Shown: positions 3,253 through 21,791, numbered from the stretch's first letter. The stretch is 64,000 bases of DNA from Deltaproteobacteria bacterium (GCA_016209105.1 JACQWR010000025.1:41314-105313), one strand, 5' to 3'. Notes: generated by a model from the sequence alone, not told the origin. Numbers and translations are program-made.

Positions 3253-4803
3253 GTGAGTATCCACAGTTTCGAAGAACTGGCCGCACTGCATGCCATCGCC
3301 AAGATCCTGGCTCAGCCGCAGGAATTGCGGGATCAACTGGAGCTGGTCCTCAAGGAGATGAGTTCGCGGCTCGGCATGCAGCGCGGGATGATTTCCCTGC
3401 TGGATCGGGAGACGGGACAGGCCTGGCTTGATGTGGCCCATGACGTGAATATTGAGGGCATGGACGTGACCTATCAGCCTGGCGAGGGCATTACGGGAAA
3501 GGTGGCCCAGACGGGGCGTCCCATGGCCATCGCCAATTTGGACCTGGAAGCGCATTTCCTGGACCGAACCGGCGCCCGGCGCTTTCTGAACAGATCGGAA
3601 CTGGCCTTTCTCTGCGTGCCCATCATCTACGATGCCCGCGTGGTTGGGGTATTGTCGGCGGACAAGGTGGCCCACAAGGTGGATAACCTGGACCGCGAGA
3701 TGGCCATGCTTTCTTCCGTTGCGGAACTGATTGCCAAGGCTGTCCATTTCCGCGCTCTGGAGGAGGAAAACCGGCGCTTGCGTCAGATTATCGGCCGTTC
3801 TCAGACCCCTTCCGTTGATATCGTCGGCCGTTCCAAGGCCATGCAGGAGGTCTTCGGTCTGATTGCCCAGGTGGCCGATTCCGGCACCACCGTCCTGATT
3901 TATGGCGAGACGGGCACCGGGAAAGAGCTGGTAGCGCGGTCAATACACCTGAACAGCCCACGCAAGGCGGGCCCGCTTGTCCAGGTGAATTGCGCCGCCA
4001 TGCCGGATACCCTTATTGAGAGCGAGCTCTTCGGCCATGAAAAAGGCGCATTTACCGGCGCAACGCATCGGCAGCGCGGACGTTTCGAAGAGGCCCACGG
4101 AGGCACCATTTTTCTCGACGAGGTGGACGAGCTGTCTGCGGCGGCACAGGCGAAACTCCTGCGTGTCCTGCAGGAAAAGCAGTTTCAACTCCTGGGCTCG
4201 TCGAAAATTGTGACCGTGAACGTCCGCATCATCGCCGCCACCAACCGCACACTGGAACAGGACGTAGCATCGGGGCGATTCCGCGCGGACCTGTATTACC
4301 GCCTCAACGTCTTTCCCATTTTTCTGCCTCCTCTCCGGGAACGGGGAAACGACATTATCCTCCTTGCCGATTATTTCATTTTAAAGTACAGCACGATCGT
4401 GGAAAAACCGGTAAAGCGGATTACCACGGCGGCCATGGATGCCCTCCTTTCCTATCATTGGCCGGGAAACGTGCGGGAGTTGGAAAATTGCATCGAGCGC
4501 GCGGTCCTTCTGGCGGCAGGCGATTCCATTGACAGCATTCACCTGCCCCCGTCCCTGCAGATGAAGACGAAGGAAGGAGGAAAGAAAGAACAGAGCAAGT
4601 TAAATACCGTTATTGAGGCACAGGAGCGGGCGCTGATCACCGATGCCCTGAAGGAGGCGCAAGGCAACCAGACCCGTGCGGCCAAAATGCTAGGTACCAC
4701 AAAACGTATTATCCAGTATAAAATCCGCAAGCTGGCGATTAACCCGGTGCGGTTTCGCCCGAAACAGGGAGGGATGCCGCCGAGCCCGCCGAAAAACACA
4801 TAA
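3253..4803 (+). CDS. Sigma-54-dependent transcriptional activator, NifA-like (GAF - AAA+ - Fis-type HTH, no receiver domain)
   Basis: GTG start. N-terminal GAF-like region, Walker A GETGTGKE, the GAFTGA motif ([15 protein letters not shown]), [10 protein letters not shown], and C-terminal [21 protein letters not shown]. Confidence 0.85.
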
Positions 4804-4859
4804 GCAGCAGAGAAGTTTAAAAGAGGGGCCGCTAAACACAGGGGGAAAGGATACGTTTT

Positions 4860-4875
4860 TGTTCCTTATGGAACA
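4860..4875 (+). promoter_or_regulatory. Candidate enhancer (UAS), perfect TGT-N10-ACA palindrome TGTTCCttatGGAACA
   Basis: The sequence tgttccttatggaaca fits the NifA-type TGT-N10-ACA consensus. It lies about 200 bp upstream of the sigma-54 promoter at 5073. The adjacent direct repeat atacgtttttgttc occurs twice (4851-4864, 4881-4894). Confidence 0.5.
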
Positions 4876-5072
4876 GAAAAATACGTTTTTGTTCTTTTTT
4901 CTTCGTAAGCAGTCCGACCTGACTTGTTTGAGTCACCGTTCCTGATGCAATTTGTCTCTTTCACAGAGATATCACGGATGGCCATTACCTGTAATGATTA
5001 TAGGATGATAGAATAACTTTATCCCGGGCGAAACAACCGGTTCACTGATTGAGGAGGAGGAGAAACCGGCGC

Positions 5073-20000: not shown

Positions 20001-20332
20001 CGGCGGCCCACCTGGTCGTACGGGGCGTCGAGGCCGAGACCGTTCTAAAGGTGAGCGAAGGACGTCCCCACGTGGTGGATGCGATCAAGAACGGCGATAT
20101 CCAGCTTGTGATCAATACGAGCGCGGGCCGCAGCTCTTCCCTCGATGCCTACCACATCCGGCGTGCCGCGCTTACGTACAATGTGCTCTATACCACGACC
20201 ATTGCCGGCGCCGGCGCCCTTGCCGAGGCGGTCCTGGCGATGCACCGGGAAAAATGGGGCGTGGCCGCGTTGCAGGACTACCATACGGGCATGGATAGTA
20301 ACGCAAAAAAATTAAGAGGAGCCGGTATTTAA
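17087..20332 (+). CDS. carB: Carbamoyl-phosphate synthase large subunit
   Basis: 1081 aa with duplicated ATP-grasp halves ([21 protein letters not shown] and [20 protein letters not shown]) and a C-terminal MGS-like domain. Confidence 0.96.
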
Positions 20333-20375
20333 GTCCGGCCGTTCAGAAACCATTCTACGTACGGAGAGAGGAAAA

Positions 20376-21791
20376 GTGTGTATCATGTCGGAGGATCAGG
20401 AGAGACCGCGGGAGGAATGCGGGGTGTTTGCCGTCTACGGCAACGAGGACGCGGCACGGATTGCCTTTTTCGGTCTTTTTGCCCTCCAGCACCGGGGACA
20501 GGAGAGCGCGGGGATTGCCACCGCCGACGGCTGCCAGATCTGGGAGCGCAAAGGCATGGGACTCGTCTCCGAGGTTTTCCGCGAAGACACCCTGACGAAA
20601 TTGCCGGGTCGTCTTGCCATCGGGCACGTACGCTATTCTACGACGGGCTCATCCGTTATTTCCAACGCCCAGCCGTTTCTGGTGCATCACGCCGACGAAT
20701 ACTATGCCCTTGCCCATAACGGCAACCTGATCAACGCCCTTGAGCTCAGGCGTGGGCTGGAGGAGCGGGGCTCCATTTTCCAGTCTACGATGGACAGCGA
20801 GGTGATTGTTCACCTCATGGCGCTCTATCTAAAGGATGGTCTGGAAGAGGCGCTGAAGAAGGCTTTTGCCCGGGTTGAGGGCGCCTACAGCATCGTGATG
20901 CTGACCCGGAAGAAGGTCATCGCCGCCCGCGATCCCCGCGGATTCCGGCCGTTGTCTCTCGGCCGTCTCAACGGGGGCTGGGTCGTCGCCTCCGAGACCT
21001 GCGCCTTCGACCTTGTGGGGGCCACGTACGAACGGGAAGTTCTGCCGGGAGAGATCATCACCATCGACGAAAACGGGCTTACCAGCAGCATGCCCTTCCA
21101 GCGGGTGAAGCCCGCACACTGCATATTCGAGCTCATCTACTTTGCCCGGCCCGACAGCCAGGTATTCGGGGAGAATGTGTACCTCTGCCGGAAGCGACTG
21201 GGGCATAATCTGGCCCGGGAATACCGGCCCGATGTGGACATCGTCATGCCGTTTCCCGATTCGGGGAACTATGCCGCCCTCGGTTATGCGGAGGAAAGCG
21301 GGATACCCTTTGAGATGGGGATGATCAGGAACCACTATGTGGGACGCACGTTCATCCAGCCCACGCAGCCCATGCGAGACTTCGGGGTGCGCGTCAAGCT
21401 GAATCCCGTGCGGCCGCTCCTGGAAGGGAAAAAGGTTTTGATCGTGGAGGATTCCATCATCCGGGGCACCACGAGCCGCAATCGCGTGAGAAACCTCCGC
21501 GACGTCGGCGCAAAGGAAATCCATATGGTCGTGAGCTGTCCGCCCACCGCTCATCCCTGCCCCTACGGGATCGATTTTTCAGACAAGGGTGAGCTTGTTG
21601 CCGCCCAGAAGCCCAACACGGCGGAGATCGCGCGCTTTATTGGCCTCGATTCGCTGCATTACCTTTCACGTGAGGGGATGGTGATGGCCACCGGCATGGA
21701 ACCGGACAACTTCTGCCTGGCTTGCTACGACGGCAACTATCCCCTTTCTCCGCCCGCGGACATGGGAAAATTTTGTTTCGAGGAGCGGTAA
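20376..21791 (+). CDS. purF: Amidophosphoribosyltransferase (glutamine PRPP amidotransferase)
   Basis: ECGVFAVYG places the N-terminal Cys after a short propeptide. The PRTase motif VLIVEDSIIRGTT and C-terminal Cys ligands are present. The start could instead be the ATG at 20385. Confidence 0.93.
   Translation: MCIMSEDQERPREECGVFAVYGNEDAARIAFFGLFALQHRGQESAGIATADGCQIWERKGMGLVSEVFREDTLTKLPGRLAIGHVRYSTTGSSVISNAQPFLVHHADEYYALAHNGNLINALELRRGLEERGSIFQSTMDSEVIVHLMALYLKDGLEEALKKAFARVEGAYSIVMLTRKKVIAARDPRGFRPLSLGRLNGGWVVASETCAFDLVGATYEREVLPGEIITIDENGLTSSMPFQRVKPAHCIFELIYFARPDSQVFGENVYLCRKRLGHNLAREYRPDVDIVMPFPDSGNYAALGYAEESGIPFEMGMIRNHYVGRTFIQPTQPMRDFGVRVKLNPVRPLLEGKKVLIVEDSIIRGTTSRNRVRNLRDVGAKEIHMVVSCPPTAHPCPYGIDFSDKGELVAAQKPNTAEIARFIGLDSLHYLSREGMVMATGMEPDNFCLACYDGNYPLSPPADMGKFCFEER

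Follow-up and report, generated by a model that had tools for sequence, protein, structure and literature searches.

Clustered genes usually encode the steps of a single pathway or the components of a single machine. Carbamoyl-phosphate synthase (CPSase) is encoded by the carAB operon in E. coli, and in Bacillus the carA and carB homologues are found in the pyr and arg operons. Glutamate synthase (GOGAT) also occurs in a split, "archaeal-type" form made of separate GltB1-, GltB2- and GltB3-like proteins (COG0067/0069/0070). Here we analyzed a 64-kb stretch of DNA from a Deltaproteobacteria bacterium (JACQWR010000025.1; hereafter the window), in which positions 3253-21791 hold a run of twelve genes, every one on the plus strand, where the makers of glutamine adjoin consumers of its amide nitrogen from three different pathways. 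As in the operons of E. coli and Bacillus, carA stands before carB on the same strand; unlike in those operons, guaA lies between the two and overlaps carA, purF follows carB, there are no adjacent pyr or arg genes, and the set stands directly behind glnA. We lean, with somewhat more confidence than doubt, toward reading the locus as a lineage-conserved "super-operon" around glutamine, in which a front module with a predicted sigma-54 promoter would be followed by a carA-guaA-carB-purF module reached by read-through.

Gene order in the window and its relatives

Genes were taken from an open reading frame (ORF) listing and from Pfam and NCBIfam scans of the window, with purF checked by Pfam only, and ten of the twelve have a clear family match. 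The run opens with the gene of a NifA-like activator and continues with a split GOGAT encoded by gltGAT (amidotransferase-like subunit), gltFMN (flavin mononucleotide, FMN, synthase subunit) and GXGXG_GltD (GXGXG domain fused to a GltD-like reductase), amt and the PII gene being embedded between the last two; glnA, for type I glutamine synthetase (GS), comes next, and then carA, guaA, an inserted gene, carB and purF (Table 1). The plus-strand run and the gene identities proposed in the initial annotation hold on the ORF map and in the family scans, the amidotransferase subunit by indirect evidence, and its gene limits needed two new starts: 12016 for glnA, backed by the start codon and ribosome-binding site, and 6251 for gltFMN, a start that is kept in relatives. 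Its proposal that guaA is coupled to carA through an ATGA was borne out by a 4-nucleotide (nt) overlap in the window, and the spacing is -4 or -5 nt in 13 relatives too. The N-terminus of PurF reads ...EECGVFAV. At the right edge of the cluster, a hairpin with a T-run lies directly after purF and a convergent minus-strand gene occupies 21832-22182.

Relatives were sampled in a scan with a single genome for each GTDB species, GlnA as the seed and flanks of 10 kb, which gave 80 loci (L numbers below) onto which the window's proteins were mapped by tblastn. Most are from Syntrophales (Syntrophus, Smithella, Syntrophaceae) or are Desulfobacterales/Desulfobacteraceae metagenome-assembled genomes, and many are labeled to class or phylum only. 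Downstream order was counted in the 44 loci in which glnA is followed by at least 8.5 kb and upstream order in the 44 in which it is preceded by at least 7.3 kb. The order carA-guaA-carB-purF follows glnA directly in 19 of the former and behind amt-PII in one (20/44 in total), carA-guaA-carB was found in 2 and carA-carB-purF in 4. On the other side of glnA, the order nifA-like-gltGAT-gltFMN-GXGXG_GltD, with or without a type III glutamine synthetase gene (GSIII), was present in 23/44. The flanks vary: mnmG lies upstream in the window and in only L013, L015, L022, and L040, and none of the window's genes downstream of the cluster recurs in the 80 loci. The recurrence of this order in dozens of separate species genomes puts the adjacency far beyond chance. 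The comparison with related genomes that the initial annotation had called for shows that the order is conserved across Syntrophales while the flanks differ, and the adjacency is not a one-strain accident. Private to this genome are only the position of amt-PII inside the GOGAT genes and the inserted gene between guaA and carB. A sister clade (76-80% GlnA identity) is without guaA, and its carA and carB overlap by 8 nt; guaA between carA and carB is therefore a derived, clade-wide feature of the window's clade.

The block also gains members. Ten related species have a GSIII gene (722 aa) directly ahead of type I glnA; it lies between GXGXG_GltD and glnA in L002, L010, L017, L024, L036, and L038, and it is also present in L029, L032, L034, and L035. 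In several species, e.g., L002, L036, and L038, GSIII has a sigma-54-like site of its own. The orthologous amt-PII pair, which among the loci compared lies inside the GOGAT genes only in this genome, is found elsewhere after glnA (L016), before glnA (L027) or after purF (L044/L051/L057), so that it moves only to positions within the cluster. Desulfobacterales loci have the order glnA-(PII)-gltB-gltD-(hisH-hisF)-carA-carB, with a canonical GOGAT and non-orthologous parts: gltD and carA overlap by 4 nt in L080 (7355-18680), and hisH-hisF lie between gltD and carA in L066 (10001-20365); L073 is a further locus with canonical gltB-gltD between glnA and carA-carB. Six Desulfobacterales loci (L063, L064, L067, L070, L072, and L073) have a class-II amidotransferase gene upstream of glnA. 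Within this phylum, GS-GOGAT is thus linked repeatedly to amidotransferase genes.

Table 1. Features of the glutamine gene cluster and of two nearby genes with similar upstream sites (window coordinates).
Feature	Position	Strand	Evidence or remark
NifA-like one-component sigma-54 activator; GAF + Sigma54_activat (AAA+, GAFTGA) + HTH_8 (Fis-type)	3253-4803	+	Pfam
Candidate enhancer, two identical TACGTTTTTGTTC copies 30 bp apart	4852-4864, 4882-4894	+	
Sigma-54 (-24/-12) promoter-like site TGGCATAATTCTGGCT	5073-5088	+	69 nt before gltGAT start
gltGAT, divergent class-II amidotransferase-like GOGAT subunit, 416 aa, starts Met-Cys	5157-6407	+	
gltFMN, N-terminal 2x[4Fe-4S] ferredoxin domain + FMN Glu_synthase domain	6251-7885	+	Pfam 1.8e-55
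Ammonium transporter Amt	7950-9176	+	Pfam 1.1e-128; TIGR00836 458.6 bits
PII (GlnK-like) signal protein, divergent, 129 aa	9238-9627	+	Pfam P-II 7.5e-27
GXGXG_GltD, GOGAT GXGXG + GltD-like FAD/NAD(P)H reductase + C-terminal 2x[4Fe-4S] fusion	9636-11969	+	Pfam GXGXG, Fer4_20, Pyr_redox_2, Fer4_7
glnA, type I glutamine synthetase, 443 aa	12016-13347	+	TIGR00653 545.7 bits, cut-off 429.15; Gln-synt_N + Gln-synt_C
Two G+C-rich hairpins, no T-run; candidate leaky terminator/attenuator	13386-13404, 13445-13463	+	glnA-carA spacer
carA, glutamine-hydrolysing small subunit of CPSase	13499-14650	+	TIGR01368 480.8 bits, cut-off 307
guaA, glutamine-hydrolysing GMP synthase	14647-16176	+	NF000848 821.5 bits, cut-off 400
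Inserted mobile gene, 190 aa	16319-16891	+	No family match
carB, large subunit of CPSase	17087-20332	+	Pfam CPSase_L_D2, D1, D3 + MGS
purF, amidophosphoribosyltransferase (class-II amidotransferase + phosphoribosyltransferase)	20376-21791	+	Pfam GATase_6/7 + Pribosyltran
Second ammonium transporter	24652-25947	-	Perfect sigma-54 promoter 25947-25932; upstream TACAAGTTTGTTC site 26034-26022
Porin-like secreted protein, 254 aa	26109-27050	-	Perfect sigma-54 promoter 26961-26946; upstream TACAAAATTGTTC site 27050-27038

Promoters, hairpins and the reading of the locus

A sigma-54 promoter was defined by GG/GC at -24/-12, canonical spacing, a position upstream of a gene and an enhancer site 80-250 bp further upstream. 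By this definition, the site before gltGAT, which has 2 mismatches to TGGCAC-N5-TTGCW, is a predicted sigma-54-dependent promoter, and the pair of TACGTTTTTGTTC copies lies ~200 bp upstream of it. The window holds 4 exact matches to TACGTTTTTGTTC, all upstream of sigma-54 promoters. The second amt gene and the porin-like gene each have a perfect TGGCAC-N5-TTGCT with a TACAnnnTTGTTCTAT site ~86 nt upstream of the promoter, and both are probably members of the cluster's nitrogen regulon. Among relatives, a sigma-54-like site precedes gltGAT in 12/24, at 78-143 nt, and such sites also precede GSIII, glnA, amt, or the activator gene in some species. The motif ACR-N4-TGTYC is present in the 300 nt before 26 of 80 sigma-54-like sites, compared with 4.6% of random windows of that length (~7-fold), often in pairs 25-30 bp apart and often as a GAACA-N4-TGTTC palindrome; it can be regarded as a predicted nitrogen regulon motif for Syntrophales. 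A TGT-N10-ACA palindrome is formed between the two TACGTTTTTGTTC copies at 4860-4875, and as a general binding site it was ruled out, since ACR-N4-TGTYC is what the relatives share. An Rfam scan of 2300-27500 at E<=1 found no known riboswitch, attenuator or leader, and control by a glutamine riboswitch or of the PyrR type is therefore not supported. The published Desulfovibrio sigma-54 regulome (PMC4641369) was uninformative for this locus.

The junction between glnA and carA is where the two modules meet. In the window the spacer is 151 nt long, with a minimum free energy of -65 kcal/mol. In relatives the gap is shorter than 80 nt in 12/49, and among the 29 gaps with a terminator-like hairpin, the distance from the T-run to the start of carA is below 45 nt in 10, which is too little for an independent promoter and leader; at least 20 relatives have no room for a promoter at this junction. 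Terminator-like hairpins follow the activator gene in 19/24, and their counts at other junctions were 0/29 (gltFMN to GXGXG), 0/32 (carA to guaA), 0/14 (carA to carB), and 2/25 (carB to purF). Ten species (L002, L008, L019, L023, L026, L030, L031, L036, L045, and L077) share a two-tier hairpin with a T-run after glnA that is conserved in sequence and is without a counterpart in the window. Its outer stem is GGGAGTTrTC...GAyAACTCCC and its inner stem TCCTTTACGAAAGGGGA, with base changes that preserve pairing, and it is conserved beyond the need of a plain terminator.

We propose that the front module is a nitrogen-assimilation operon in which the genes of a split GOGAT (here with embedded Amt and PII) are followed by that of a type I glutamine synthetase. 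It would be driven by the sigma-54 promoter, and its most likely activator, acting from the paired upstream sites when fixed nitrogen is scarce, would be the NifA-like GAF protein encoded alongside; adjacency, together with what is known of NifA-type GAF activators, points to both the activator and the signal. Head-to-tail behind glnA, the second module would provide three amidotransferase enzymes that feed amide nitrogen to arginine and pyrimidines, to GMP and to de novo purines. The hairpin after glnA would lower transcription, and because the gap in many species has no room for a separate promoter, at least part of the second module's expression probably comes from read-through and would lie below that of glnA. 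Several observations weigh against this reading. A terminator-like hairpin with a T-run follows glnA in 29/49 relatives and could stop most transcription there. No sigma-54 site was found in relatives before carA (0/47), carB (0/18), or purF (0/17), and the upstream motif was not found there either. Upstream of gltGAT, the sub-clade of L013, L014, L018, and L022 is without a sigma-54 site, and the sister clade has the palindrome but no recognizable -24/-12 element. In the window itself, guaA and carB are split by a 0.9-kb foreign insert with a weak terminator-like hairpin (16273-16290) in front, and because of this separation carB-purF may need its own promoter in this genome; sigma-70-like sites lie before carB at 16753-16780 and 16863-16892. 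Finally, sampling went via glnA, and clusters without a closely related glnA fall outside the sample. The co-regulation from one locus suggested by the initial annotation accordingly survives in part: the short glnA-carA gaps favor at least partial co-transcription, while the sigma-54 sites and their motif belong to the front module only and the hairpin after glnA is frequent.

The frequent hairpin and the confinement of sigma-54 sites and motif to the first module would also be expected of tandem modules that are regulated independently and owe their adjacency only to shared descent within a single order, aided by a leading-strand, origin-proximal placement of highly expressed housekeeping genes. 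We consider this possible, if clearly less probable than the read-through super-operon. That the cluster adjoins mnmG/gidA in the window and in the four relatives named above, that GC skew is positive across the whole window, and that every conserved example comes from one phylum are all consistent with it. Less easily reconciled with independence are the persistence of the block while its flanks shuffle, the many glnA-carA gaps too short for a promoter, the addition of GSIII, amt-PII, and guaA to the block at different places in different clades, and the Desulfobacterales, in which the GS-GOGAT genes joined to carAB include another type of GOGAT and are accompanied by hisHF. The shuffled flanks, the accreted glutamine genes and the Desulfobacterales parallel argue against pure inertia and are no proof of selection. 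At the other extreme, the whole 18-kb block could be one nitrogen-responsive unit, in which the NifA-like activator, perhaps informed by the embedded PII, would set the level of GS-GOGAT and a leaky hairpin would set the amidotransferases (CPSase, GMP synthase, PurF) at a fixed lower ratio. This we regard as unlikely; if true, it would mean that amide nitrogen is rationed at the level of transcription, a scheme that would have arisen in energy-limited syntrophs and, independently and with other parts, in Desulfobacterales (gltBD, hisHF). It is quite improbable that the products form a physical complex that channels glutamine from GS to the amidotransferases, with coupled translation helping assembly. 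Overlapping or tightly spaced genes (the ATGA of carA/guaA; gltD/carA in L080) and the grouping by shared substrate rather than by pathway are indirect hints of such a complex, set against a gene order that varies within the block (guaA present or absent, amt-PII moving) and a foreign gene tolerated between guaA and carB; to our knowledge, none of these enzymes binds GS. We also rejected, as having next to no likelihood, the reading that the split "GOGAT" genes encode a related three-subunit enzyme such as N-methylglutamate synthase, in which case the front module would hold no GS-GOGAT cycle. The N-methylglutamate pathway uses the same set of GltB1/2/3-like subunits (PMC6237917), and the amidotransferase-like subunit is too divergent for Pfam, NCBIfam, and PDB. 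Yet the GltD-type NAD(P)H/FAD reductase and Fe-S domains fused to GXGXG, with a ferredoxin domain on the FMN subunit, indicate a reductive reaction as in GOGAT, and the partner ligase, which scores above the equivalog cut-off, is a genuine type I GlnA rather than GmaS. The context of amt, PII, and a sigma-54/nitrogen-type promoter speaks the same way, as do the Desulfobacterales, which hold canonical gltBD beside glnA and directly before carA, in the same position as the split-GOGAT/glnA block.

GOGAT subunits, regulators and inserted genes

The gene called a GOGAT amidotransferase in the initial annotation is the doubtful one. Its product has no match in Pfam, NCBIfam, or PDB, whether searched as one sequence or by profile; close homologues carry the names "glutamate synthase domain-containing protein 1" or "class-II glutamine amidotransferase." In hhalign comparisons, gltGAT matched the PurF N-domain at E 5.6e-4 with a probability of 30%, and four canonical GltB N-domains weakly (E 0.34), only the order of motifs being informative in the latter: the class-II motifs RxxTN, PF, NGE(I)NT, SDS, DGP, LRP, and SE are collinear between gltGAT and the GltB N-domain. 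An exhaustive HMMER search with the gltGAT profile returned 288 clusters at 50% identity among 1.84 billion proteins, mostly fragments. One of these hits, protein P0388 (8.4e-13), is itself above the Pfam cut-offs for GATase_2, GATase_6, and GXGXG. An AlphaFold2 model of the 5157-6284 product, built on a 21-sequence alignment, was unusable (mean predicted local distance difference test score 48.8). On this consistent, not strong, indirect evidence we accepted the product as a putative divergent class-II amidotransferase subunit of split GOGAT; the motifs, the weak profile match and the one bridging protein are its only links to class-II amidotransferases. The gltGAT family would thus comprise GOGAT amidotransferases missed by the standard libraries, and it merits a family model of its own.

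The length of gltGAT differs between the window and its relatives (416 vs. 376 aa). In 20/25 relatives the gene stops at codon 377 and overlaps gltFMN by 37 nt; in the window, the stop codon is replaced by TAT at 6285-6287, so that the protein is 40 residues longer and the overlap grows to 157 nt. Other assemblies contain an identical 416-aa protein (P0001), and the long form is therefore not an error of this assembly. The 157-nt overlap was ruled out as a conserved dual-coding or frameshift site, given the 37-nt overlap in 20/25 relatives. The other two subunits are clearer. The FMN-binding synthase domain PF01645 is present in gltFMN (1.8e-55, 189 bits), together with two 4Fe-4S motifs. In the fusion protein, the GXGXG domain PF01493 scores 40.0 bits against a cut-off of 32.5 at residues 57-198, and the GltD-type reductase is recognized by Fer4_20 (6.7e-9) and Pyr_redox_2 (2.7e-34); the NCBIfam gltA and GOGAT small-subunit models match it below their equivalog cut-offs, as expected for a fusion. 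The GXGXG_GltD gene adjoins the FMN subunit gene in relatives too.

The best NCBIfam match of the activator is nifA TIGR01817, at 482 bits and below the cut-off of 528.85. Its architecture of GAF, sigma-54 AAA+, and Fis-type helix-turn-helix domains is complete, GAFTGA can be read in its translation, and among the 44 relatives whose upstream sequence is long enough, 27 have a nifA-like gene before the cluster. None of the window's annotated ORFs was recognized as a nif gene. An NtrC-type response regulator (33798-35162) with a convergent histidine kinase (35090-36817) is an alternative candidate to bind the upstream sites; it belongs to a segment (32157-36817) that begins with a stand-alone GAF protein upstream of a glyceraldehyde-3-phosphate dehydrogenase gene. 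The embedded PII protein scores far below the GlnB/GlnK equivalog cut-offs of NCBIfam and is atypical: its T-loop region (GRQGGIRLAGRSGTYQVDMLPK) is longer, and 17 residues form a C-terminal tail.

The gene between guaA and carB, which the initial annotation called an orphan, is not one. It has 48% G+C against ~60% around it, is absent from all 80 related loci, and is one of a ~190-aa family whose 834 homologues (66-89% identity) are spread over distant phyla; Pfam, NCBIfam, PADLOC, and PHROGs gave no match. One homologue lies in a P2-like prophage of Yersinia enterocolitica, between the replication genes gpA/zf-ClpX and the portal gene, a position at which P2-like phages often carry accessory or defence genes; others are in unrelated contexts. 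Members of the family were located in L082/L083 (6001-6660), L084, and L086. The gene is a strain-specific mobile insertion outside the conserved design, and the supposed orphan is in fact widely transferred. The guaA-carB junction is also enlarged (137-507 nt) in L029, L009, L010, L016, L030, L032, L034, and L038, with a DUF559-like endonuclease fragment and repeat-like sequence in L029 (14160-14668), and it appears to be an insertion hot spot, in the window as in several species. Just after the cluster, a block of low G+C (47-52%) at 22200-24100 contains a sulfatase-like fragment and a DUF4143/AAA_14 ATPase (22940-24076) with a PADLOC match to the candidate defence family PDC-S01 (6.1e-50); the block, situated between purF and the second amt gene, likely came in as a foreign insertion. 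Further along, a ResIII-type helicase (669 aa) adjoins an N6/N4 DNA methylase (548 aa) on the minus strand (51848-55503), and the pair is probably a type III restriction-modification system.

Comparison with known systems

Full-text literature searches found no description of this cluster, nor of a NifA-like regulator of GS-GOGAT in Syntrophales. The arrangement is real and, it appears, undescribed, and its components are all familiar enzymes; nothing here overturns current understanding. What is unusual is the grouping by shared substrate, the GOGAT subunit architecture and the position of guaA between carA and carB, which, with purF directly after carB, bears out the initial view that the arrangement is not a textbook one. 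Across an order of slow-growing, energy-limited anaerobes the block has been retained and has gained genes, and a related order has a parallel version made from different parts. If both halves are co-transcribed, the locus would offer a simple genetic means of adjusting nucleotide and arginine synthesis to the supply of nitrogen.

The front module resembles the proteobacterial sigma-54/NtrC operons (glnA-ntrBC, glnK-amtB, gltBD), in which GS, GOGAT, Amt, and PII likewise stand behind a -24/-12 promoter with an AAA+ enhancer-binding protein. In place of the NtrB/NtrC two-component pair, however, there is a one-component GAF protein of the NifA type, and, unlike in those operons, all four functions are found in one predicted operon, GOGAT is split, and carA-guaA-carB-purF lies directly behind. 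With NifA itself, the activator shares the GAF-AAA+-HTH architecture, the best NCBIfam model and a TGT-N10-ACA ~200 bp upstream of a sigma-54 promoter. It differs from NifA in scoring below the curated cut-off, in the lack of a nif gene in the window, in predicted targets that here are GS, GOGAT, and Amt genes, and in the recurring upstream site, which in the related loci is ACR-N4-TGTYC and not TGT-N10-ACA. As in the split archaeal-type GOGAT, the amidotransferase, FMN synthase, and GXGXG parts are encoded by separate genes and the central domain of bacterial GltB is absent; unlike in that enzyme, GXGXG is fused here to a GltD-like reductase and a ferredoxin, the FMN subunit carries an N-terminal 2x[4Fe-4S] domain, and the amidotransferase subunit comes from a narrow family unrecognized by Pfam, NCBIfam, and PDB. 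At the level of the whole locus, the closest concept is that of the über-operons or supra-operons, which Lathe, Snel and Bork reportedly described in 2000 as gene neighborhoods conserved above the level of the operon. As in these, related operons stay neighbors through rearrangements, and members move within the neighborhood and not out of it; unlike in these, the genes here are united by a single metabolite, glutamine with its amide nitrogen, and not by a single pathway or molecular machine.

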